Of a DNA stretch of 64,000 bases, positions 4,460-56,280 are shown one piece after another. A model generated the notes under the pieces. It made no database searches. It saw only the letters and a program-made list of their open reading frames with translations, and had not been told where the DNA came from. Origin of the DNA: a virus; the IMG/VR virus record IMGVR_UViG_3300013126_000010, positions 32,001 to 96,000 of that record. One strand, written 5' to 3'. Each line of letters opens with the position of its first letter. Position 1 is the stretch's first letter. The position numbers were made by a program, and so were the translations under genes.

Positions 4460-7400
4460 ATGTCAGCAACCGATAGACAAAACAGATTATTAGTCGCAGA
4501 AGACTGGAAACGAATCTACCAAAGTTACAAAAACGCAGATTTTCAAAGTTATGATTTTGATAATCTTCGCAGGATAATGATCACTTATATCCGCGAAAAT
4601 TATCCAGAAGATTTTAATGACTATATTGAATCATCTGAATATTTGGCATTGATCGACTTAATTGCGTTTCTAGGACAAAGTATATCATTTAGAACTGATC
4701 TGAATGCACGTGAAAACTTCTTGGAATTGGCTGACAGACGAGAGAGTGTCTTGCGTCTTGCCAAACTATTGAGTTATAACCCAAAAAGAAACGTTGCAGC
4801 AACTGGGTTGCTAAAGTTCGTTTCAGTCCAAACTTCTCAAAATGTATACGATGCCAATGGTAGAAATATTGCAGGTCACACGATCCTATGGAATGACACC
4901 TCCAATCAAAACTGGTTTGATCAATTCATTAGAGTAATAAATGCCTCGTTAAGTTTAAGTAGCCAATTTGGTAATCCAGCAGGTAGTGCCACGATTTATG
5001 GTATACCAACTGAACAATATCGTTTTCAAACAAAAAGCACAGATGTACCAGTCTATTCATTCAGTAGAACTATTGAAGGGAAAAGTATGAATTTTGAAGT
5101 AGTATCAACTGGTATAAGAAATGCAGCTGATATTTACGAAGAACCACCATTGAAAGGTAACAAATTAGCATTTTTGTATAGAAATGACGGCAAAGGTTAC
5201 GGTTCCAATAATACTGGTTTTTTTGTACAATTTAAACAAGGGTCATTGGGTAGCGGGTCATTTACGTTAACACAACCATCAACAAATGAGTCTGTTGATA
5301 TTGATACTCCTAACATTAATAATAATGACGTGTGGTTGTATCAATTAGATCACGATGGAAATGAATCTACATTATGGACTGAAATTCCCGCATTGGAAGG
5401 TAATAATGTAATTTACAACAGTTTAAGTAAAGCTATTAAAAAAATATTTGCAGTATCTACTAGAACTAATGACAGAGTTAGTTTATTATTTTCAGATGGC
5501 ACATTTGGTGATCTACCAACAGGTGCATTTAGAACTTATTATAGATCAAGTAATGGATTAAATTATACTATTAATACCAAGGATATGAGAAATGTGATAT
5601 TAACATTACCTTATATTTCAAATACTAATCAATTAGAAACTATTACTATTAACATGAATTTGGTTACATCTGTTGCTAATTCAGTTGAATCAGAAACTAA
5701 TGATAGTATAAAAGTTAATGCACCGGCAACCTACTATACACAAAATAGAATGATTACTGGTGAAGATTATAATATTTCGCCATTATCTGCCACTCAAGAT
5801 GTATTAAAAATAAAATCTATTAATAGATCATCAAGTGGTATAAGTAGATATTTTGATTTGGTAGATCCTACTGGAAAATACAGTAAAACTAATTTGTTTT
5901 CAGATGATGGTGCCATTTATATTGAAAATTATACTGATAGTTTTCGATTCTCATACATGACCAAAACTGAAATAGAATATGTAATTAATAATAAAGTACT
6001 TGGTGCATTAAAATCAATAGAGTTAAGAGATTTCTATTATAATAATTTTAAAAAATATTTGACTACAACTGATATATCATGGGTGACAAGCACATTTGAT
6101 ACTAATTCATACACTGGATTATTGTATTACAACAGTGCCCCTGTTGCAGTTGGTAGCGGAGCACAATCCGGGTCATTATTGAGATTTATTACACCAGGGG
6201 CACTTTTAAAATTCAAATATTGGGATAGTGTGTATAATGGATATCGTTATAAATGGACAACAGTTTCATATGTAAGTGGTAATGGTACTACCGTTGAAAA
6301 CGGTATTGGACCAATGTATATAACAGATGATGTTCCTGCTGGAGCTGTATTAATTCAAATCATTCCAGCATTATCTACATCATTATCAACTAATTTAGTA
6401 TCTTCGTTAGTTGATTTAATATATGAAAATAAACCATTTGGTCTTAGGTATGATATTGAAACCACCTCATGGAAAATAATTTATGATGTTGATTTGAATA
6501 AATCTGGTGATTTTAGTTTATTAGAGACAGGAAACACTAGTAGACGACACAAAGATAGCAGCTGGTTGTTATTATTTACTACCGACACCGAATACTATAC
6601 TGTAAAACAGCGATTGCTTCGATACGTATTTGAAAGTGAGAATCAAGTAAGATTCTATTTTAATAAAGGCAGTAAAATATACGATAGTAGAAGTAATATT
6701 GTTGTAAAAGATCAGATTAAAATTTTAGGAATTAATATCCAAAACCAAGGAGAGGAACCAAATGATAGAATATGGGAAATAAGTAATCAATTTTATGGTG
6801 CTGATGGATATGTAGATAATAAGAAAATACAATTAAGTTTTTCTGACACTGACGATGATGGTATAGTTGATAATCCTTCTATATTTGATGAGTATGTTAC
6901 TAATAACGAATACATAGTTCAAAAAGGTTATGATACTGACATTGGCTATGAATATAAACTTTCAACTGATGTATACAGATATACTAAACTTGGTGGTGTA
7001 TTAGTTGGTGGCATTACTGAAGATGGTTTTGCAGTAGTACATGACGTTATTATAGTTGACAATGATACCGTTGATTTAACAGAATATTTTATAGGCACCG
7101 ATGATACTCATGCAGTTGAGTTATATTTTTATATAGTGAGTAGTAAAGTTGTAAAAAAATTAGTTTGGGATACTAGTACTACTAAAAAGTTGATTCTGTC
7201 AACCGAACGTAAAGTTTATAATGGAAAAGAAAAGGTAAAATTTCAATATATCCATAATGCAACAAATGATGCTAGGATTGATCCAGGTTTGACAAATATA
7301 ATGGATGTATATGTTTTAACAAAGCAATACGATACTGCGTATAGACAATGGGTTGCCGGGGCAATATTAGATAAACCATTGCCGCCAAGTTCTGATTCAT

Positions 7401-7909
7401 TATATGCATTGATGTCTACTAAATTGAATAAAATAAAATCAATTAGTGATGAAATTGTTTATCATCCAGTCAAATTCAAAATATTATTTGGACAAAAATC
7501 TAATCCAGATGTTCGTGCAACATTTAAAGTTGTCAAAAATTCAGAAATAGTAATTAGTGATAATGATGTAAAATCACAAGTTTTGACTGCTATAAATACA
7601 TTTTTTAATTTAGAGAATTGGGATTTTGGTGATAAATTTCATTTTAGTGAATTACAAACATATGTAATGAATCAAGTATCACCATATGTAGTGAACTTTA
7701 TTATAGTACCAACAATGACAGAATTAACATTTGGTAGTTTGTATGAAATAAATGCAGAAAAAGATGAAATATTTATCAATGGTGCGACAATAGATGATAT
7801 TGAAATAATTAATTCAATAACTGCATCAAAAATAAAAAGTGCAGGACAAATAGCACTTGAAACTACAGGTGTTACAAATATAACAATAACAAGCTCAAGG
7901 AATAACTAA
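4460..7909 (+). CDS. gp6: baseplate wedge subunit gp6-like
   Basis: N-terminus DFQSYDFDNLRRIMITYIRENYPEDFNDYIESSE...LIDLIAF...ENFLELADRRESV; also APATYYTQNRMITGEDY. Confidence 0.9.
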   Translation: MSATDRQNRLLVAEDWKRIYQSYKNADFQSYDFDNLRRIMITYIRENYPEDFNDYIESSEYLALIDLIAFLGQSISFRTDLNARENFLELADRRESVLRLAKLLSYNPKRNVAATGLLKFVSVQTSQNVYDANGRNIAGHTILWNDTSNQNWFDQFIRVINASLSLSSQFGNPAGSATIYGIPTEQYRFQTKSTDVPVYSFSRTIEGKSMNFEVVSTGIRNAADIYEEPPLKGNKLAFLYRNDGKGYGSNNTGFFVQFKQGSLGSGSFTLTQPSTNESVDIDTPNINNNDVWLYQLDHDGNESTLWTEIPALEGNNVIYNSLSKAIKKIFAVSTRTNDRVSLLFSDGTFGDLPTGAFRTYYRSSNGLNYTINTKDMRNVILTLPYISNTNQLETITINMNLVTSVANSVESETNDSIKVNAPATYYTQNRMITGEDYNISPLSATQDVLKIKSINRSSSGISRYFDLVDPTGKYSKTNLFSDDGAIYIENYTDSFRFSYMTKTEIEYVINNKVLGALKSIELRDFYYNNFKKYLTTTDISWVTSTFDTNSYTGLLYYNSAPVAVGSGAQSGSLLRFITPGALLKFKYWDSVYNGYRYKWTTVSYVSGNGTTVENGIGPMYITDDVPAGAVLIQIIPALSTSLSTNLVSSLVDLIYENKPFGLRYDIETTSWKIIYDVDLNKSGDFSLLETGNTSRRHKDSSWLLLFTTDTEYYTVKQRLLRYVFESENQVRFYFNKGSKIYDSRSNIVVKDQIKILGINIQNQGEEPNDRIWEISNQFYGADGYVDNKKIQLSFSDTDDDGIVDNPSIFDEYVTNNEYIVQKGYDTDIGYEYKLSTDVYRYTKLGGVLVGGITEDGFAVVHDVIIVDNDTVDLTEYFIGTDDTHAVELYFYIVSSKVVKKLVWDTSTTKKLILSTERKVYNGKEKVKFQYIHNATNDARIDPGLTNIMDVYVLTKQYDTAYRQWVAGAILDKPLPPSSDSLYALMSTKLNKIKSISDEIVYHPVKFKILFGQKSNPDVRATFKVVKNSEIVISDNDVKSQVLTAINTFFNLENWDFGDKFHFSELQTYVMNQVSPYVVNFIIVPTMTELTFGSLYEINAEKDEIFINGATIDDIEIINSITASKIKSAGQIALETTGVTNITITSSRNN

Positions 7910-39152: not shown

Positions 39153-42026
39153 TTATTTGAATGTAAATAAAGTGTCGAAAGTATTTTTCTTTGTTGTTGA
39201 TGCAATGTCGAAATCTAATACACCGATCAGGTTTTCTAATTTCTTGTCTACTATTGTTTCCTCCATTAAATCGTCATCGAACGGCATATCCTTAAACCAT
39301 TCTGGTAATCGCATTTCATCAATTGGGTATGCAACACTAGTAAAACCAAGAGGATTATTAGTTAATTTACATACTATCACTTTAAAACCATCAACAATAT
39401 TCATTGAATATTTGTCATTATGAATTTTTTTAAGCATATTCCAATTAATAGCAGCTCTAACATGCCCTGGCATATTAGCTTTACCTTTATCATCCTCTAT
39501 TTTCATGAATTTTCCGATATTATTAACTCGTTTCGGTGTCCCTTTTTCCCATCCTGGTCGTTTTCTAAATTCATCTCTGAATTCTCGAATACGATTTAAG
39601 ATAGTTTCATGATCAACATCCAGCAAAACATTTTCAAGTATTTCGGATAGAAAGTCTTGCATGTACTCAGGGGTATCTGCGCGTTTTAAATCTAATCCCA
39701 TTGCCTTGATTTCGCCTTCTTTTCCGTTTTTATCATAGCGTTTCCCTTCTTTGTCATAGTATAGCACTGCATAACGTTTTTTGGTAATGAAAAGAGCATT
39801 CGTACCAACAATTTCTCTACCAGCCCTTATAACATCACCTCTATTTTTTGGACAATTGAATGCATTGAACATAAAATCAGGGAATGTTTCATTTACCATT
39901 TCACCTATGTTATCGTATAATTCAACAACAAGGTTTTTATCCCATGGAATAGTTCCATTATCTATTTCTGGTTTAAACGTATCATACGCAGAAAAATATA
40001 CACTATCTGTATCATTATAGATGATAGATTTCCCCAAATAATCATAATTACCAGTTATAATTTGATTTACTTCTGCAGTCATATGTTTAACAATCTGTCT
40101 ACCAGTTAGTGTAGTTGATTGCCCAATTCGTTTATCAAAAAATCTACATCCACTATTAAGTATTGCACCATACAGTGAATTCAAGTTAATCTTTCTAATA
40201 TGCTGCGATTTATCCCAATATTCAATTAATCTGGTGACTTCAGCTTTATCATTGGCTAATATTTTTCCATTATCGATAGTTAAATCATATTTAACTATCA
40301 TATTTTGAAATTCTTCGGTTGAACCATTTTCTAATGTACTATAAAAAGTATCCCAATCAATATCTTTTACTGACATTTTTGTAGATGTGGTAGATAATGG
40401 TAAGATTATTTTATCTTTAAATCGTTCTGGTATTGAAATACCACCATCGAGATTAATGTAATTTTTAGTAATCTTTTGTTGAGATTTTCGTTCTGCATAC
40501 CATTTTTTCAATAATCCAGGAATTATACCTTCACGTTCATATGAAAACAATGTTCCATTGGCAGATAACATTAATTTATTTGACTTTGTATTAAAGATCA
40601 AATTATAAATTTCAGCGGCACTATGTTGGGTAGATTTACCATCTGTCCAATCAATGTATAACATAGTGCCTTTATCTTGTTTCATTACAAAGTCATATTC
40701 CAATGAGGCAAATATACCTTCCCATGCAGCAGCAAATGAATGACCGTCTTTTAATTTAGAATTAATATAATTATCAGTATATTCTTGTCGTATTTGACCA
40801 ATGATGGACTCTGGTCCCATGTTTAATGCACGAATGGTACTTGGGTACAGTGAGTTGATGTCAAGAGAACCGATCCATTTATGCAATCCTTTTCGTGGGT
40901 ATGCAACATATGCCCCTGCAGCTTGCGTAGATTCGCTCTCAGGGATTCTTTTACGGGATGGCACCCGTAGCCCTAGTTCATGTGCTTCGTTGATTATAGC
41001 CTGTTCTGTGACGGCTACAGCCCCCATTGTGGTTTGTAATAAAACAGTATTGGTGTGTGCAAGTGCATTGGCAGTATTAATGAATTTCAGTTTTACATCC
41101 AATTTATTCAATAATGCAACGTCTTGTCGATTGTATATAACAAATGTTCTAAAGTCATTGTTATATAATTGATCTAATGTTCCTTCATATACAGTTTTAC
41201 TTTCATTAACTTCTAATTGTCCAATGAAATCTAATCGATATGATGATTGTTCTTCATAAGTGTATTTTTGATACAATTCCAAATAGTCTAAATGAACCCT
41301 ACCAAATAGGTCATAAGTAACTGATGTTTTTCCAAATTTTTCATATTCACGTGCTCTGGGCAATAAATCCCATAAACAAAATCTCCTTGATTCATCATTC
41401 GATAATGTCATTTTGACTCTGTTTACAGTATATGGAATATCATAGCCAGTACTGTTCCAGCCAGATAATACATCAGCATCCTCAATCAGATCAAGAAAAT
41501 TTAATAATAATTCTCTTTCATTTCTACAAATGATAGTATTTGGTAAATCTTTTACTAACTCTTCTGCTTGTTCAAATGTTATTGTTTTTGGTGGGACTGC
41601 TAGAGTAACTAATGTATCCAACCATTGTAAATGCAGAGAAACAGCTGTAATAGGCATGAAGGCATCGGCAGTACTTGAATAACCAAGCTCTGGATCAAAA
41701 TCCACCTCGATGTCGAAAAAGCAGACATTTAATATTGGTGGTTCTGCATGCATATAATTTTCACTCAAACATACAAATGTTTGGTTTAAATCTGATTCAT
41801 ATACTTTTTTATTTTGGTGGAGTTTCAGGTTTTTTTGAAACTCCTTATATGACTTTGACCTTATAGGTATAAGGGGTTCGTTATATATTGATCGGTGTGT
41901 TCCTGATGGGCTAGGAACAAAGAATTGGTACGTTGCAGGGTAATCAATAAACTTACGTCTACCATTTTTACGTTCTACAACATGCACCATATTCCCATCT
42001 TTATTAAAATGAGCGTCTACGTACAT
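39153..42026 (-). CDS. gp43: family B DNA polymerase (T4 gp43-like)
   Basis: ExoI FFDIEVD, ExoII GWNSTGYDIPY, ExoIII YNRQD; motifs A SLDINSLYPS, B KINLNSLYG, C YNDTDS. ATG at 42026 has an AGGAG SD. Confidence 0.97.
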   Translation of the reverse strand: MYVDAHFNKDGNMVHVVERKNGRRKFIDYPATYQFFVPSPSGTHRSIYNEPLIPIRSKSYKEFQKNLKLHQNKKVYESDLNQTFVCLSENYMHAEPPILNVCFFDIEVDFDPELGYSSTADAFMPITAVSLHLQWLDTLVTLAVPPKTITFEQAEELVKDLPNTIICRNERELLLNFLDLIEDADVLSGWNSTGYDIPYTVNRVKMTLSNDESRRFCLWDLLPRAREYEKFGKTSVTYDLFGRVHLDYLELYQKYTYEEQSSYRLDFIGQLEVNESKTVYEGTLDQLYNNDFRTFVIYNRQDVALLNKLDVKLKFINTANALAHTNTVLLQTTMGAVAVTEQAIINEAHELGLRVPSRKRIPESESTQAAGAYVAYPRKGLHKWIGSLDINSLYPSTIRALNMGPESIIGQIRQEYTDNYINSKLKDGHSFAAAWEGIFASLEYDFVMKQDKGTMLYIDWTDGKSTQHSAAEIYNLIFNTKSNKLMLSANGTLFSYEREGIIPGLLKKWYAERKSQQKITKNYINLDGGISIPERFKDKIILPLSTTSTKMSVKDIDWDTFYSTLENGSTEEFQNMIVKYDLTIDNGKILANDKAEVTRLIEYWDKSQHIRKINLNSLYGAILNSGCRFFDKRIGQSTTLTGRQIVKHMTAEVNQIITGNYDYLGKSIIYNDTDSVYFSAYDTFKPEIDNGTIPWDKNLVVELYDNIGEMVNETFPDFMFNAFNCPKNRGDVIRAGREIVGTNALFITKKRYAVLYYDKEGKRYDKNGKEGEIKAMGLDLKRADTPEYMQDFLSEILENVLLDVDHETILNRIREFRDEFRKRPGWEKGTPKRVNNIGKFMKIEDDKGKANMPGHVRAAINWNMLKKIHNDKYSMNIVDGFKVIVCKLTNNPLGFTSVAYPIDEMRLPEWFKDMPFDDDLMEETIVDKKLENLIGVLDFDIASTTKKNTFDTLFTFK

Positions 42027-42076
42027 ATTTCTCCTACAGTTCTTCGGGCGACTGTTAACCAAATTACATAGATTAA

Positions 42077-42626: not shown

Positions 42627-42965
42627 ATGAAATCACTACTCTTTGTGTTGATAATTTTAGCAAGTTTTTCTGTGAATGCAAATGAAGCATATGGAACCTA
42701 TGTTGATGACCCAACGAAACCATTTGATGCTACTAATGTTAGGCATGAAACGGTTTCTATAACATGGGTTCGAGTCGCACCTTCGAATATTAATTCTGCA
42801 TGCGCAGTGGAATCAAAAAAACGTGGTTATACCCCTATTAAATATAATAAAGATGCATGTTCGTTTTGGGATGGGACAGAATGTACTATTATTACTGGAA
42901 ACAATACAACGATGCATACAACTGGGCATGAATTTCGCCATTGTTTCCAGGGTTCATGGCATTAA
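42627..42965 (+). CDS. secreted small protein with HEXXH zinc-binding motif
   Basis: Signal peptide MKSLLFVLIILASFSVNA; 4 Cys; C-terminal GHEFRHCF. Confidence 0.75.
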   Translation: MKSLLFVLIILASFSVNANEAYGTYVDDPTKPFDATNVRHETVSITWVRVAPSNINSACAVESKKRGYTPIKYNKDACSFWDGTECTIITGNNTTMHTTGHEFRHCFQGSWH

Positions 42966-43864
42966 TCTTTGCCGTACATTGCGTAATATGGTTCTAGTAG
43001 TTTAGCCAATTCTGGTTGATATTCTATATTTTTTTCCAGATCAAACGCTAATGCGTTTAATTCCATTTCTTCTGCTCTAGTGAAATTAGATGTAGCTGGG
43101 TTAGTAACCTTTTTGATAGCTGATCCAGTGGCTGCGGTATTAGAATTAGTAGCCTGTTTGGTAGTTGAGCCTGCTCCTGTAGTATTATTTTGGGATGGTT
43201 TATTACCACCGCTTGCCATTGCACTACTGCCATTATCAGTTGATGCGTTACTTAAATATTTTTTCCCAGCAGCAACCAATGCAATTGCTGACCCACCAAT
43301 TGCGGCTGATCCTAATATAGAAGAAATCCCAGGAATTTTCTTTAATTCGGCTGCAGCAACTTCTGGATTTGCATTTTGTAATGCTTTTTGGATAGGAACT
43401 AATGCTGTTGATTTTGATACTAATTCCCCAGGAATATCAGCCAATGGTGGCGCTGATGATCCAATTGGGTTGTTTTTAGGGATATATTCTCCTTCAATGG
43501 GTTTTGGAGATATACTTGACCCAGTTTTCGGTACACCAGCTGGATTGTTATGCAATTGTTTTACCAGTGCGGTTCCTTTACTCAAATCACCAATATTATT
43601 AGCTACTGATCCAATTGAGGATTTTGGATTTGCGGTTTTTGACGCATATGCGGCATTTTTTGGTAATAATTCAATTTGCTTTGGTGATAATTGCTGTCCT
43701 ATAGAAGAAAAATAACTTTTAACATCATTGATTATTTCTTCTGCAGACTTGCCATTACGTGCCGCAGCAGTAATTGCTTTTTGCAATTGTATAGCATTAA
43801 CCTCAGTGATGTATTGTTCCGAGACAATGGTTTGATATTTTTTCATTTCTTGTATCATATTCAT
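42962..43864 (-). CDS. putative internal head/ejected protein
   Basis: Propeptide-like N-terminus (MKKYQTIVSEQYITE); Ala/Gly/Ser/Pro-rich; hydrophobic ILGSAAIGGSAIALVAAG helix. Confidence 0.55.
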   Translation of the reverse strand: MNMIQEMKKYQTIVSEQYITEVNAIQLQKAITAAARNGKSAEEIINDVKSYFSSIGQQLSPKQIELLPKNAAYASKTANPKSSIGSVANNIGDLSKGTALVKQLHNNPAGVPKTGSSISPKPIEGEYIPKNNPIGSSAPPLADIPGELVSKSTALVPIQKALQNANPEVAAAELKKIPGISSILGSAAIGGSAIALVAAGKKYLSNASTDNGSSAMASGGNKPSQNNTTGAGSTTKQATNSNTAATGSAIKKVTNPATSNFTRAEEMELNALAFDLEKNIEYQPELAKLLEPYYAMYGKD

Positions 43865-43866
43865 AA

Positions 43867-44454
43867 TTATTCTTGCCCTATTAATTCATACTGTACCATT
43901 AAGTTATACAGATCTTCGGTATAAATTCCATCCACTTCAATGTCTGCGCCCATGTTATTTAATTCGGATTGAACTGCCGCGATATCAGCATTATATTCTT
44001 GTGAATTATACTCAGGTGACTGTTCTGGCGCATCTTGTTTATTATTAAAAAAACGGGTGATAGCTTGCATAACCTCTTCTCTATTTTCATATAATAAACT
44101 GAATAGGTCATACAATCCAGCAATAGCAGCAGTCTGTGGGATCACATATCCTATCGCAGTTAATGCATGTATAATTGCTGATTTATATTCGCCATTTTGA
44201 TAATCGGTAAATGCATCTTTTCCTAATTCTCCTGCGCGAATGAATGAAAATATCTTAGAAAAAAATTTAGCCGCGCCATCACCGATCATTGCCATCATGG
44301 GTGATGATATTTTATTTCCTATCGCAGCAGTAGCACTTCCAATTATTGCGGTGTTACCAGACGTTGATTTTACATCATCAACAGATAATTCATACAATGG
44401 AATGCCGGATTCTAACAATCTTATTGTGTCGAGTGTGTGTTTTATATGATTCAT
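43867..44454 (-). CDS. putative virion protein with C-terminal peptidoglycan-binding-like domain
   Basis: IAAVQSELNNMGADIEVDGIYTEDL resembles PG_binding_1 (VxxLQxxL..G..l.vDG.yG); central amphipathic/hydrophobic helices. Confidence 0.55.
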   Translation of the reverse strand: MNHIKHTLDTIRLLESGIPLYELSVDDVKSTSGNTAIIGSATAAIGNKISSPMMAMIGDGAAKFFSKIFSFIRAGELGKDAFTDYQNGEYKSAIIHALTAIGYVIPQTAAIAGLYDLFSLLYENREEVMQAITRFFNNKQDAPEQSPEYNSQEYNADIAAVQSELNNMGADIEVDGIYTEDLYNLMVQYELIGQE

Positions 44455-45182
44455 GACGGCTTATTCAAAAAACCAATAATTTCACGCTTTGTTTGCATAT
44501 CAGTAGTATTAAACATTTTTTTAGTTTCCGCGTCCAACATATCATCTACACCCATATCCATTCCACCTAATTTACCAAGTATTGATGTATTTTTATCTTT
44601 TAAAAATTGTTTCAACTTTATTTTTTTATCTTGTGGCAGTGCATTAAATGCCGCTGCTAATTTATCTGGTGTTGAGTTTAGCGACAATGCTGCTTTTTGT
44701 GTGGTAACGGCTGGAGTAATATTATTAGGTTTAGCTGCTTGTCCACTCTGCCCATTATTTGCTGGCACTGCTTGAGGTTGCATAGCAGGAGTTGTTCCTT
44801 TATTAGCTATGTCAGGTACATCATCTGCTGGTACAACGCGAGGTTGGGTGGCTGGAGTTTGTGTAGAAGGAGCAGTTGCAGGAGTAGCTGCTTTTGCACT
44901 TTGTCCTTTATTTTGAGTAGGAGCAGGCGATGTTGTTTTATTAGGAGCAGATGAAGTTTTTCCATGTGCTGCTTGCGCTTTTGACATAAGCTGTTTAAAT
45001 CTAGCTATTTTTTGTGGAGTAGCAGTAAAAATAGGATGACCAGTTTGAACTGATGGTGATCCTGATGCAACAGGAGCTGCGGCAGATTTGTTGATTTCAT
45101 CCTGTGATGGTATATAATCTCCATGATCATCTTCAAATAATCCAAAAGATTCCAATAACTGTTGAGCAATGCCTTTTTTCAT
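44451..45182 (-). CDS. low-complexity (Pro/Ala/Thr/Gln) putative internal head protein
   Basis: N-terminus MKKGIAQQLLESFGLFE, long disordered linker, helical C-terminal domain. Confidence 0.55.
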   Translation of the reverse strand: MKKGIAQQLLESFGLFEDDHGDYIPSQDEINKSAAAPVASGSPSVQTGHPIFTATPQKIARFKQLMSKAQAAHGKTSSAPNKTTSPAPTQNKGQSAKAATPATAPSTQTPATQPRVVPADDVPDIANKGTTPAMQPQAVPANNGQSGQAAKPNNITPAVTTQKAALSLNSTPDKLAAAFNALPQDKKIKLKQFLKDKNTSILGKLGGMDMGVDDMLDAETKKMFNTTDMQTKREIIGFLNKPS

Positions 45183-45203
45183 GATATATCCTATTTAATT
45201 TGT

Positions 45204-45289
45204 GCTACATTTTATATAATGAGGGTAGCGGGTCATTATATCGGCTGTAGCTACCGTGCGCCCTAACGTAACAGTCCCAGGCTAAATGT
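45204..45289. ncRNA. candidate structured RNA/DNA element with pseudoknot topology (class unknown)
   Basis: 34 of 60 nt are G/C at 45221-45280 in an AT-rich genome. Helices: ATATAATGA/TCATTATAT, loop GGTAGC with GCTACC, and GGCTGT/ACAGTC. Confidence 0.5.
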
Positions 45290-45755
45290 GTTCAGGTGGT
45301 GGTAATTGTTCTTGTTCACCTACAATAGCATCATATTGATCCATTGTTAAAGTTTCACCATCTTTGCTGAATTCTATTAATTTTTCTGCAACATTATGAA
45401 GATCCATATCTGTTTGTGCATCTTCTTTTGCGTATTCTAATAATCTGATTAATAACGGAACATCCATTGATACAATATCAACTGGATTAGATTCATCTTT
45501 CAAAAAGTGTTTTGCACCATGTCTAGAAGTTCGTCTTACACTTTTTTTCAAACCATGGGTACGTTTTAAATCTCTGGATAATGAAGAACTACGACCAGTA
45601 TGATGAAAACCAATTTTTTCATTCATCGAGTTTTCTTCCAAAATGATTGACATATATTTTGACAATTCATTGGAAGTTGATTCTGATAATATTTCAGTAG
45701 ATTTAATCTCTGAATCTAAATTATCAATCACTGACAATAATTTCTTCATTTCCAT
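45282..45755 (-). CDS. putative internal head protein
   Basis: Several LxE/ILE motifs in the N-terminus; C-terminal DIVSMDVPLLIRLLEYAKEDAQTDMDLH core. Confidence 0.6.
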   Translation of the reverse strand: MEMKKLLSVIDNLDSEIKSTEILSESTSNELSKYMSIILEENSMNEKIGFHHTGRSSSLSRDLKRTHGLKKSVRRTSRHGAKHFLKDESNPVDIVSMDVPLLIRLLEYAKEDAQTDMDLHNVAEKLIEFSKDGETLTMDQYDAIVGEQEQLPPPEHI

Positions 45756-45758
45756 TAT

Positions 45759-46619
45759 TTATCCTTTTTTAGCTTGCTGTTTCCACATTGCGGAAGCGGC
45801 GATAGCAGTTGGATTTGATGCTCCAGATTTTTTAGCAGCTTTTTCTACCTTTGAAAATCCTTTTCCTTTCTTACCGATGTCTTCACCAGCTTTTGCTTTT
45901 TTCACCACAGTTGATTTTTCTTTTTTTGTCATTCCTGCACTTGGTTTCGCTTTTTCAGCCAAAGATTCAGTTGCACGTTTTAATGGACCTAATCCCATTG
46001 TCTCAAAACCACCTGCACGAGCTTTTTCCATTTTTGCATCATGAATTAATGCTTTCCATTTATCTCTTACAGATTTTGGGTCGCCTTTTATATCTTTGAA
46101 TCCACTATTTGGTTCACCGATAATCATCATGAATGACCCTAAATTCAATAACTCTAATTTACCAAATTTTGGATGGTGGACATCAACATACTTGGTACCA
46201 AGATATGGACCTTCATCTAATCGTGTATCACATGATTCATTACATTGTGAGCAGTCTTCGGTGCATGCATTTTTTACTTCTTTTTTAACAGCTTTCTTTT
46301 TAGCATGTTTTAAATTAGCTTTAGCTTCCATTAGTTTTTGTTGATATTTTGTTTGCAAATGTTCTGCATAAATATCAGCATTATCTAAATGATCACCAAA
46401 TTCTGATTTTTTGATATCAAATTCCATAAAATGATATACACTTGCAATATAATCAGCTGCTTTAGTAATTTTTGCTTGAACCCATGCTGGTAATTCTTGA
46501 CCATCATGAATCATTTTTATTAATTTTAAACTATACTTGCCGGTTTTATATAAATCAGCACGTGCCATAGGTGCATCATCACTAAAATCTTCCATAGGTT
46601 GGTTATTATCTAAATTCAT
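45759..46619 (-). CDS. putative head core/internal protein
   Basis: MARADLYKTGKYSLKL...LPAWVQAKITKAADYIASVYHFME; Lys-rich segments separated by LxE motifs. Confidence 0.6.
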   Translation of the reverse strand: MNLDNNQPMEDFSDDAPMARADLYKTGKYSLKLIKMIHDGQELPAWVQAKITKAADYIASVYHFMEFDIKKSEFGDHLDNADIYAEHLQTKYQQKLMEAKANLKHAKKKAVKKEVKNACTEDCSQCNESCDTRLDEGPYLGTKYVDVHHPKFGKLELLNLGSFMMIIGEPNSGFKDIKGDPKSVRDKWKALIHDAKMEKARAGGFETMGLGPLKRATESLAEKAKPSAGMTKKEKSTVVKKAKAGEDIGKKGKGFSKVEKAAKKSGASNPTAIAASAMWKQQAKKG

Positions 46620-46636
46620 TATTATCTCCGTTTTAT

Positions 46637-46643
46637 TATTTAT
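46637..46643 (-). promoter_or_regulatory. late promoter-like ATAAATA
   Basis: Intergenic, directly upstream of the GGAG SD of ORF 45759-46619. Confidence 0.5.
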
Positions 46644-46644
46644 G

Positions 46645-46989
46645 CTAAAAGCCCAAAGATTTTTTTATGCGCTGCGACAATGATGGTTGCGCAATAACTT
46701 TCACTGGTTTTAATAGTGCTTGTTTTTTTACTATCTTTTGTGAACGATCAATACCTTTTTCACGTTTATCTCTTTTTGCAAAATCAGCATCACCTTGAGA
46801 TTCATCACCTTCATTGTCAAAATCGCCATTCCATGTATTATGAATTTTTCTATTACCTTCATCATCATGTTCTTTAGCATCTTTAGCTGCTTTTGATCTA
46901 TATCTTACATGGGTATTATTACTTAATTCGGTTAACCCATCTTTATCCATCCATTCATGTAATAATTGTGTTAAATGTTTTTTGCTCAT
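46645..46989 (-). CDS. putative internal head protein
   Basis: QLLHE...GLTELSNNTHVRYRSKAA; highly charged. Confidence 0.6.
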   Translation of the reverse strand: MSKKHLTQLLHEWMDKDGLTELSNNTHVRYRSKAAKDAKEHDDEGNRKIHNTWNGDFDNEGDESQGDADFAKRDKREKGIDRSQKIVKKQALLKPVKVIAQPSLSQRIKKSLGF

Positions 46990-46990
46990 A

Positions 46991-47236
46991 TTATGCTCTC
47001 TTAACTACTGATCCAAATAGATTATTTGAATCTAATCCATTATCCGTTGGTTTTTGTTTTTTTGGTTTAGGCTGTGCCGGTGATTTGGTACCAGACCCAG
47101 TTGCAATTGAACCGGTGTATGATTTGTTACCACGAGCAGATCCAGGAGATATATGTGGATTTGGACTAACCGCTATACTGCCTGCACTAGTAGAACCAAC
47201 TGTCGCTGTCTCTGAAATTATTTCCCATGTTTTCAT
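46991..47236 (-). CDS. putative internal head protein with capsid-targeting-sequence-like N-terminus
   Basis: MKTWEIISE resembles the T4 IP targeting sequence MKTYQEFIAE; the rest is Gly/Ser/Pro/Lys-rich. Confidence 0.6.
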   Translation of the reverse strand: MKTWEIISETATVGSTSAGSIAVSPNPHISPGSARGNKSYTGSIATGSGTKSPAQPKPKKQKPTDNGLDSNNLFGSVVKRA

Positions 47237-47240
47237 TATA

Positions 47241-47807
47241 TTACCACTCTATTGGATTTAAAAAACCTAGTAAATGAAGACCGGATGACTTGGTAAAATC
47301 AAAACTTCGTATTTTTCTATATATACCATCACCATTGCGATCTGCTTCTGCTGATATAGCTTTACCAGGAGAAGTATTTGCTTCTAATGTCGCCATTGAT
47401 TTACCATCACATGCGACGACAATTCCAGCATGACCGTTAGATGTTGACCCTTTTTGCATAAAAAATATAGATCCTGGAATTGGATCTTTTGTAATTAATC
47501 CTTTACATGCATTATAACTGGTCATTACACTTGGGTTTAGTTTTTTACCAAAATTAGATAATACTTCAGATGGTGCATTTAAATTAGAATATGCCAATCT
47601 CCAAATAGTCTCGGAAAATGCCATACAATATGGCCATCCTGGTTGCCATCCTGATTTTTTCATTTCAGCTTCCAATAATGCACTTTCTTCTTTTCCACTA
47701 TTTGGGTCCAGTATTGACCTCCATGCAGCATTGTCTTTTATTTCAAATAAATTGACAAAATGTGAACCAACTTTAATTATTTCATTCCCTATTTCTTGTT
47801 TATTCAT
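47241..47807 (-). CDS. CHAP/NlpC-P60-like peptidoglycan hydrolase
   Basis: WPYCMAF (catalytic Cys), PGSIFFM, GHAGIV (His), TLEANT. Confidence 0.8.
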   Translation of the reverse strand: MNKQEIGNEIIKVGSHFVNLFEIKDNAAWRSILDPNSGKEESALLEAEMKKSGWQPGWPYCMAFSETIWRLAYSNLNAPSEVLSNFGKKLNPSVMTSYNACKGLITKDPIPGSIFFMQKGSTSNGHAGIVVACDGKSMATLEANTSPGKAISAEADRNGDGIYRKIRSFDFTKSSGLHLLGFLNPIEW

Positions 47808-48358
47808 TATTTTCTACCTCTGAATCCAGTAGGAAATCTAGAAGTATCTAATGGAAACCAAGTATCAAACCATTCTTTTGTACCGGGTTTGATGTTATTC
47901 TCTTTCACATACTCAGCATTGGCAGCAGCTTTATTATTTATATGTTCCAATGTTACCGGAGTAAATGTATTAGAACCATTACCAATACCTGCTAGTTTGG
48001 CTATGTGATTAATTTCTTCTGAAACAGAATCAGTAAGTGGGCTAGATGGGGAATCCGGTGAATTATCTTTTTCCAATTTGTCGGATTCTTGTTGATATAG
48101 TTGGTTACATATATCACTTAAATCTTCTGGAGACAATTTTTCTGGCAGTTGGTCAAGATCGTATACATCTTTGTATACATCATAGGCACGTTTAACTACT
48201 GGTACTAATAATGCCTTATTAATAGGCAAATTGTACTTGTGATGGTTTTCTATTTTTTGAACTATCGGATAGAAAACTTCTTTATAGAATGTTGTATCAT
48301 TATTGATAAACTGTAGCAAGTCATCAACAATATCAAAATCAATGTCATTTTTATGCAT
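47807..48358 (-). CDS. hypothetical late protein
   Basis: 183 aa, GAGGA SD, first gene after a late-promoter hairpin. Confidence 0.65.
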   Translation of the reverse strand: MHKNDIDFDIVDDLLQFINNDTTFYKEVFYPIVQKIENHHKYNLPINKALLVPVVKRAYDVYKDVYDLDQLPEKLSPEDLSDICNQLYQQESDKLEKDNSPDSPSSPLTDSVSEEINHIAKLAGIGNGSNTFTPVTLEHINNKAAANAEYVKENNIKPGTKEWFDTWFPLDTSRFPTGFRGRK

Positions 48359-48362
48359 AAAA

Positions 48363-48397
48363 AATCCTCATATTATATTTATCATAATATGAGGATT
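48363..48397 (-). promoter_or_regulatory. RBS-sequestering hairpin with late promoter-like ATAAATA in the loop
   Basis: Perfect 14-bp stem AATCCTCATATTAT/ATAATATGAGGATT. On the minus strand the 3' arm contains the GAGGA SD, and ATAAATA lies at 48382-48376. Confidence 0.7.
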
Positions 48398-48433
48398 GTA
48401 GTTATATACTCAATACTTAGTATTTCATGAGTA

Positions 48434-50731: not shown

Positions 50732-50760
50732 TTTGTTACCTCGTTGTTGATAATAATCTT

Positions 50761-50789
50761 ATTGTAGCACACTATGATGATAATGTAAA
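50761..50789 (-). promoter_or_regulatory. sigma70-type promoter for clpA
   Basis: TTTACA-17 nt-TACAAT with a TGn extension. Confidence 0.65.
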
Positions 50790-50810
50790 GGGGCATTTTG
50801 CCCCTTTTTT
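50787..50810. terminator. intrinsic terminator
   Basis: AAAGGGGCA-TTT-TGCCCCTTTTTT directly after the stop of the A1-like gene. Confidence 0.75.
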
Positions 50811-56197: not shown

Positions 56198-56223
56198 TGT
56201 TTTGTTAAACTTGTAAATTAAAC

Positions 56224-56252
56224 ATTATAGGACTATACTGGACAATTTGCAA
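56224..56252 (-). promoter_or_regulatory. sigma70-type promoter for the clamp loader
   Basis: TTGCAA-17 nt-TATAAT. Confidence 0.6.
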
Positions 56253-56255
56253 CAT

Positions 56256-56277
56256 AAAAAAGGGGCCAATGCCCCTT
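56256..56277 (-). terminator. intrinsic terminator after mazG
   Basis: Minus strand AAGGGGC-ATTG-GCCCCTTTTTT. Confidence 0.8.
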
Positions 56278-56280
56278 AAA

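Follow-up and report, generated by a model that had tools for sequence, protein, structure and literature searches.

Why does a phage whose genes are packed tightly keep a 99-nt, GC-rich gap between two genes of the same strand, and what is kept in it? The question arises in a 64,000-nt stretch of viral DNA (the window), which spans bases 32001-96000 of an IMG/VR virus record that is 184.7 kb long and was judged to be about 52% complete. A first-pass annotation had proposed that this gap holds interlocked helices acting as a switch, and that they could constitute a new regulatory RNA or a ribozyme. Here we examine that proposal by comparing the locus with its relatives.

The gap and its genomic setting

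The window has a GC content of 33%, and all three stop codons are in use in it. In a search of sequencing runs, the only strong match to the 64-kb stretch was a DNA run labelled lake water, and no RNA run was listed for it. The family-B DNA polymerase encoded at 39153-42062(-) shares 41-47% identity with its counterparts in Sinorhizobium phage Phosso, Agrobacterium phage Atu_ph07, Vibrio phage 2.275.O and ~350-kb E. coli jumbo phages. From these identities we take the phage to be a jumbo phage of the T4 superfamily.

The gap (45183-45281, 57% GC) separates an upstream gene for a 157-aa protein (45282-45755(-), with its TAG stop codon at 45284-45282) from a downstream gene for a 243-aa, low-complexity protein (44451-45182(-)), the latter belonging to a family with LLESF and KIARFKQL motifs. 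As had been claimed, it is the largest gap between genes of the minus-strand cluster 42962-48358. The GC content given for 45221-45280 was also accurate: we measured 0.567 against a window mean of 0.329±0.066, a value that 0.11% of 60-nt windows reach.

The cluster had been called late, and this is supported by the distribution of the heptamer ATAAATA. Across the genome its exact form is 20-fold enriched at positions -42 to -11 relative to gene starts; 36 of 220 genes have it, usually 17-31 nt ahead of the ATG. One-mismatch variants show no enrichment there, and the exact heptamer looks like the T4-type late-promoter box of this phage. The nearest exact box upstream of the gap is found at 46637-46643(-), where gene 45759-46619 starts 17 nt further on; other exact boxes lie at 48375-48381(-) and, at a distance of 24 nt, ahead of gene 4460-7909(+). 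Host-type promoters seem to be used by the phage beside these boxes. The same-strand gaps 50732-50808(-), 56198-56280(-) and 48359-48433(-) contain textbook intrinsic terminators, and near-consensus sigma70 promoters (TTTACA-17-TACAAT and TTGCAA-17-TATAAT) come after two of them.

The window copy of the 243-aa protein has no Pfam match and is not a known RNA binder. Its relatives often carry a PG_binding_1 domain, significant at locus L092 and weaker at L029 and L091. The C-terminal domain of the 157-aa protein (residues 85-150, …VPLLIRLLEYAKEDA.TDMDLHNV…) corresponds to no Pfam or PHROG family; over 300 metagenomic proteins, 86-275 aa in length, contain it, and at IMG/VR loci it is part of open frames that reach ~740 codons. 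A short part of gene 45282-45755 has 75% DNA identity to the 735-kb uncultured phages LR756501 and LR756503. This gene, its neighbour 45759-46619(-) and their homologues (L003-L007, L029-L031) start with a common leader, M-D/E-x-K-K-I/L-L-x-x-I/L-D, which would fit a shared targeting signal or a propeptide. At L029, L030 and L031 the leader is also present on the gene downstream of the gap, as part of a ~130-aa N-terminal extension that is absent from the window copy.

From the window sequence alone, a 9-bp stem is the sole feature of the gap above chance. All of the complementary strings from which the interlocked fold had been drawn are present (45214-45222/45233-45241, 45224-45229, 45250-45255, 45243-45248/45271-45276 and 45207-45212/45284-45289), and 6-bp complementarities within 100 nt occur at chance expectation. 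Fold energies compared with dinucleotide shuffles were ordinary, both for the window sequence (z of -0.96 on the minus strand and +1.23 on the plus strand) and across the members of the family described below (z from -0.2 to -1.6).

The statement that the gap matches no known riboswitch was borne out. Rfam 15 gave no matches over the whole window at gathering thresholds and, when 45000-45500 was searched at E≤10, none on the element; the five matches listed there fall on flanking genes or clip the edges of the element, and all score far below threshold. No riboswitch or ribozyme model matches the element region even at E≤10, and the small self-cleaving ribozymes (hammerhead, twister, pistol, hatchet and HDV-like) were rejected on this ground. 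The order of helices, as we understand these classes, also includes neither the P3/L3 segment of HDV nor the enclosing P2 of pistol. A tRNA or tmRNA was rejected as well, ARAGORN finding 0 such genes in the window. We found no description of the motif in the literature; a large screen for structured RNAs in viruses (Fremin et al. 2023, PMC10690425) has 10,006 candidates, which may or may not include it.

Relatives of the element and its covarying helices

Homologues of the 157-aa protein with 58-75% identity were retrieved from a large protein collection, on contigs from lake and other metagenomes. In close relatives the gap is kept at the equivalent place, with a length of 99-119 nt. Eight further copies of the element were collected, seven of them full-length (L029, L030, L036, L092, L031, L033 and L049) and one with the 3' half only (L091). 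The IMG/VR locus L037 is identical to L031, and L034 holds just the last 27 nt of the element. L049, which is GC-richer and more divergent, was the sole new member to come from a DNA-pattern scan of JGI metagenomes, among 40 mostly chance matches. The same kind of scan returned only L037 from IMG/VR and no element from 185,579 prokaryotic species genomes (GTDB), and a pattern of the L033 type gave no new copies. Protein-pattern scans of IMG/VR for the downstream gene had no matches. The C-terminal domain of the 157-aa protein occurs at 26 IMG/VR loci (at most 48% identity, full length), which have neither the gap nor the element.

A covariance model (R1) built from seven of the sequences scores 58-116 bits over all members and 110 bits for the window (45180-45294(-)). 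Run over the 184.7-kb genome it finds one element, and its matches in the complete records of four distant relatives all had E>0.1. The half-sites and motifs of the element are not repeated in the genome either; with a single copy, a repeat family or a phage promoter was rejected. The known set comprises nine sequences, window included, from one narrow clade.

The conserved RNA element is ~80 nt long (45203-45283(-)) and runs from just past the upstream stop codon to the end of a GUAGCA box. It is followed by a poorly conserved, A/U-rich spacer (45183-45202(-)) that carries the Shine-Dalgarno sequence AGGA (45192-45189) of the downstream gene. Identity to close relatives, counted over alignment columns, is 78-91% from the first helix (P1) to the 3' strand of the last (S2), compared with 44-72% in the spacer. 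The 3' strand of S2 is a sharp 3' boundary of conservation.

The 9-bp stem proposed for the window is kept and covaries across the relatives. It forms the hairpin P3 (45214-45241(-)), in which 45241-45233 pairs with 45222-45214 around a loop (45232-45223) with the octamer CGCUACCC. Two-sided changes are found at 7 of its 9 pairs, AUAAUGA/UCAUUAU being replaced by ACAAUGA/UCAUUGU, AUAACGA/UCGUUAU, ACAAUAA/UUAUUGU or UAUAUCAG/CUGAUAUA; L049 has an unrelated stem with a shifted register. The loop measures 10, 11 or 12 nt depending on the member, and its octamer is identical in eight of the nine members, L033 having CGCUGCCC.

The hairpin P1 (45262-45281(-)) begins 0-11 nt 3' of the upstream stop codon and pairs CCUGG (45281-45277) with UUAGG (45266-45262). 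Its fourth pair is G·U, G-C, A-U or U-A depending on the member, and 12 G·U pairs were counted in it on the minus strand. The apical part varies in length, and the inserts of L031 and L033 fold into hairpins of their own. A 5' hairpin appears in the minimum free energy (MFE) fold of seven of eight members, the exception being L092.

The hairpin P2 (45242-45256(-)) pairs CGGU (45256-45253) with GCCG (45245-45242) below a 7-nt loop, AGCUACA. It is paired in 96.9% of cells, its top pair is U·G or U-A, and its support is one two-sided change, from C-G to U-A, in two sequences (L030 and L031). The helix S2 joins the GCUACA of this loop (45246-45251(-)) to UGUAGC (45204-45209(-)), the 3' end of which lies ~22 nt before the AUG. 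S2 is paired in 93.8% of cells, with two-sided changes from C-G to U-A in L033 (GUUAC with GUAAC) and from A-U to U-A at the end pair in L036, and was recovered independently by RNAalifold. In the MFE fold of seven of eight members it is the base of a long hairpin made of S2, a 4x4 internal loop and P3; in L033 an extended P2 is preferred.

Looking for covariation in homologous intergenic regions, as had been suggested, was productive. With the eight further copies, the helices together are paired in 90.9% of cells and have 10 pairs with a two-sided change, compared with 4.6±1.4 after column shuffling (0 of 500 shuffles reach 10). In a second control, where the 3' partners were slid by 1-3 columns, 29-50% of cells were paired and 1-3 pairs had two-sided changes. 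A seven-sequence MAFFT alignment left the covariation picture unchanged. Given nine sequences from one narrow clade, P1, P2 and S2 each rest on few changes. The minus strand has G·U pairs and A·C oppositions in a ratio of 18 to 1, P3 being free of any G·U, and this asymmetry fixes the gene-sense strand and the RNA nature of P1 and P2.

If P2 and S2 form at the same time, they make a classical H-type pseudoknot in which loop 1 is 1 nt long, loop 2 is absent and a long loop 3 accommodates P3 and then conserved adenines. If P2 is left out, S2 and P3 form one long, nested, interrupted hairpin. Since P2 rests on few changes, we regard the three-stem pseudoknot as probable, not as proven. The interlocked helices of the first-pass annotation are therefore recovered in part: P2 and S2 interlock and covary, but the partners differ from those proposed, the downstream GUAGC pairing with the GCUAC of the P2 loop. 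A pairing of the P3 loop with the downstream GUAGC is broken in L033, whose changes compensate within S2. Two other proposed helices did not hold up across the relatives, namely the closing ACATTT/AAATGT, paired in only 52% of cells, and GGCTGT/ACAGTC, paired in 56%, in which a G·T of the plus strand is an A·C mismatch on the mRNA strand.

Three-stem pseudoknots, that is, H-type pseudoknots with an embedded hairpin, are a class described in PMC11262651. The element resembles them in having a stem 1 (P2), a stem 2 (S2), a hairpin (P3) in the long connecting loop and an A-rich stretch before stem 2. Examples of such folds are the preQ1-II riboswitch and the coronavirus frameshift signals. Unlike these, the element has no Rfam match, no slippery site and no overlapping frame, and the Shine-Dalgarno sequence lies outside stem 2. 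On comparative grounds it appears to be a new motif within a familiar general type of RNA, with a well-supported structure and a narrow distribution.

Coding, promoter and terminator readings of the gap

Several simpler reasons for the conservation of the gap were considered. Read-through or recoding of the upstream stop codon was rejected: in the window the frame stays open for 28 codons past the TAG, but all three stop codons serve as ends of tightly packed genes, and the relatives end in TAA or TGA, with another stop a few codons further on. Nor does the gap represent a lost C-terminus of the 157-aa protein, because the homologue at L003 ends at the same residue. Small open reading frames on both strands are broken in relatives by 1-2-nt indels in the loops.

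A late promoter in the gap was rejected, since no exact ATAAATA box is found 12-35 nt upstream of the start codon; the exact heptamer is absent from the gap of the window and of the relatives. Variants of the box are present (ATAAAAT and TTAAATA in the window; ATAAATT, ATAAAGT, ATAAAAA and ATGAATA in relatives). A sigma70 promoter was likewise rejected. The one match, ATGACC-16-TAAAAT, agrees at 9 of 12 positions, which is background level (37 such matches found and 32.9 expected), and its '-35' bases covary with their partners in P3, something that a promoter would not need. In the relatives compared, no conserved promoter precedes the element. As to an intrinsic terminator, 45183-45281 has no terminator-like site, P3 being followed by AUAAAAUG; sites of this type were found in other gaps (48363-48397 and 50787-50807). 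As the gap has neither a promoter nor a terminator of its own, the element is expected to lie inside a late polycistronic mRNA. This transcript of the minus strand would likely start from the ATAAATA box at 46637-46643.

These data also bear on whether the conserved feature is a site in DNA, such as a nested palindromic operator or a promoter of the downstream gene. P3 forms an inverted repeat nested within that of S2, with a symmetric 4-nt spacer on each side, P3 is Watson-Crick only, and besides the weak sigma70-like match a TATAAA-like box is located 26-27 nt before the AUG. This symmetric interrupted palindrome is a point against reading the element as an RNA operator, as it would also fit a DNA site. 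However, the promoter-like match does not exceed background, and gene starts show enrichment of exact ATAAATA but not of the late-box variants present in the gap. The spacing of the half-sites shifts by 1-2 bp among members. Moreover, the strand-specific G·U pairs, the inserts of P1 and the covariation of P2 have no explanation at the level of DNA. We consider such a site highly improbable. The element is instead very probably a cis-acting structured RNA of the sense strand. The suggestion of a new regulatory RNA or ribozyme survives as a conserved, covarying, non-coding RNA with no Rfam or tRNA match; its ribozyme part found no counterpart among Rfam ribozyme models at E≤10.

Linkage to the downstream gene and possible function

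What lies upstream of the element differs between members: mostly the 157-aa homologue, but an additional 252-aa gene in L031 (L031:3189-3947) and a 42-aa ORF in L033 (L033:1176-1304), these two frames lying between the 157-aa homologue and the element. In both L031 and L033 the element stays beside the downstream gene and not beside the upstream one. The downstream gene is homologous in seven of the eight copies with downstream sequence (window, L029, L030, L031, L033, L036 and L092) and looks unrelated in L049; the loci with a partial element (L091 and L034/L035) begin with the same downstream gene family. The distance from the end of the element at S2 to the next AUG is a constant 16-24 nt. 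This spacing, the stop of conservation at S2 and the gene linkage indicate that the element belongs with the downstream gene, as its leader.

The same observations bear on a trans-acting role, in which a small RNA would be processed from the operon mRNA and its invariant loop would serve as a seed for a phage or host RNA. An invariant 8-nt loop on a variable stem is indeed seed-like. In addition, AAUGACCCGCUACCC (45237-45223) has a 15-nt perfect complement on the opposite strand at 5248-5262(+), in the sense strand of the baseplate-wedge gene 4460-7909 (PHROG 10646), which may be a chance match or a trans target. However, this complement has an E value of 0.066 within this genome alone and includes bases of the P3 stem that vary in relatives. 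The element also has no promoter or terminator for itself, and its constant distance to the AUG and its association with a single gene family suggest action in cis. A trans-acting RNA is in our judgement very unlikely.

How could a leader of this kind act on the gene that follows it? The ribosome binding site (RBS) falls in the A/U-rich spacer, which is not conserved. Partition-function calculations leave the RBS mostly unpaired, and its accessibility shows no consistent change when S2 is forced or blocked. A self-contained switch that sequesters the Shine-Dalgarno sequence is therefore unsupported. No conserved pairing sequesters the RBS, and a mechanism of translational control is not visible in the sequence. 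The proposal of a switch thus stands as far as alternative pairings of the three GCUAC/GUAGC boxes are possible, but not in a consistent change of RBS accessibility.

In a wider form of the proposal, the element would represent a new class of ligand-sensing riboswitch or self-cleaving ribozyme, with P2 and S2 as exclusive folds. As in a riboswitch, a conserved aptamer-like part with covarying stems is found, and it is mainly in the loops and junctions of these stems that the invariant nucleotides lie. A pseudoknot with an embedded hairpin is the topology of some riboswitches, as described in PMC11262651. Alternative pairings are possible in all members: the P3 loop with GGUAGC (GGURGC in the family), as first proposed, is paired in 100% of cells and ACYGU with ACGGU in 95%, and the MFE fold of L033 favours the extended P2 over S2. 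Nevertheless, these alternatives are without two-sided changes, the P3-loop pairing having one-sided wobble changes only. A riboswitch expression platform was rejected, as there is no terminator, no sequestration of the Shine-Dalgarno sequence and no dependence of the RBS on S2. No Rfam model fits even at the permissive threshold, and the downstream gene offers no metabolic hint of a ligand. We therefore judge this reading improbable, and markedly so. It is also decidedly unlikely that the element is the aptamer or operator of a new class of RNA switch specific to T4-superfamily jumbo phages and timing the synthesis of a peptidoglycan-binding protein encoded in a late operon. Such a switch would toggle the three GCUAC/GUAGC boxes between the P2 fold and the S2 fold when a ligand or phage protein binds the CGCUACCC loop; a new self-processing RNA would be an alternative form of the same idea.

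An invariant octamer in the loop of a stem that covaries freely typically marks a site that a protein or another RNA reads. Our best explanation, which we hold with a little less than even confidence, is a cis-acting intercistronic leader RNA of the late operon, probably a factor-binding operator. What is established is that the element is conserved, covaries, belongs to the sense strand, occurs once and is linked to the downstream gene family. On this basis we hypothesize that the RNA folds into P1, P2 and P3 once it is transcribed, with S2 joining the P2 loop to UGUAGC ~22 nt before the start codon. It would act in cis on the following gene, whose family often has a peptidoglycan-binding domain. 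A protein or RNA factor would recognise the CGCUACCC loop on the P3 stem, beside the free RBS, and its binding may set the translation, and possibly the stability, of the distal part of the operon.

Known phage operators offer a model for such a leader. The translational operator of T4 gene 32, to which a protein binds, consists of a pseudoknot and, after it, an A/U-rich RBS region without structure (PMC535899, citing Shamoo 1993 and McPheeters 1988). The element shares with the gene 32 operators of T4 and RB69 a T4-related phage, a polycistronic message and an H-type pseudoknot, probable here, 5' of an unstructured A/U-rich stretch with the RBS, and in both cases the upstream ORF ends next to or within the pseudoknot. 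In this layout P2 and S2 would form the pseudoknot, both covarying, with the RBS largely unpaired; P2 shows few changes, and a nested fold is possible. Unlike the gene 32 operator, to which it has no sequence similarity, the element precedes a gene of the LLESF/PG-binding family and not one for a single-stranded DNA-binding protein. It also has an embedded 9-bp hairpin with an invariant loop and an extra 5' hairpin, and factor binding is putative here. A translational operator of the gene 32 kind may serve as the closest working model, although we hold this specific version to be less likely than not.

The operator of T4 gene 43 is a 5-bp hairpin adjoining the Shine-Dalgarno sequence of the DNA polymerase gene, with a loop recognised by a phage protein. 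The element is similar to it in having a hairpin with a specific ~8-nt loop, a few tens of nt upstream of the AUG, and a free Shine-Dalgarno sequence. It differs in being much larger, and the DNA polymerase gene is 3 kb away.

A factor-binding operator has to be weighed against an intercistronic processing or stability signal, that is, a site cut by a host or phage endoribonuclease of the RNase III or RNase E type, or a block to exonucleases, which would give the proximal and distal parts of the message different lifetimes. The element stands between cistrons of one transcript without a promoter or terminator of its own. S2, the 4x4 internal loop and P3 amount to about 19 stacked positions with P1 beside them, and this long hairpin with its symmetric internal loop is the MFE fold of seven of eight members. 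The RBS is left free, unlike in a repressor hairpin. The RNase III sites of T7 early mRNA are intercistronic irregular hairpins with longer stems and with no invariant apical loop or pseudoknot. The element resembles them in its intercistronic place, its internal loop, its phage polycistronic RNA and the free downstream RBS, cleavage being hypothetical here. However, an RNase III site does not require an unchanging apical loop, whereas eight of the nine members share the same CGCUACCC. The covariation of P2 and the conservation of P1 would be unneeded, and a paired length of 6 + 9 bp is short for RNase III. By analogy with T7, a processing signal is conceivable, but we regard it as rather unlikely.

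To our knowledge, almost no regulatory RNAs have been characterised in uncultured jumbo phages. The gap described here holds a compact, covarying RNA motif with a probable pseudoknot and an invariant loop, tied to one gene family in a late operon. If it proved to be a processing site or a switch, a new class would be added to those already described. If it is an operator, as we tentatively favour, T4-style post-transcriptional control of individual cistrons would extend to this jumbo-phage clade, and the loop would be a handle for finding the factor that binds it.
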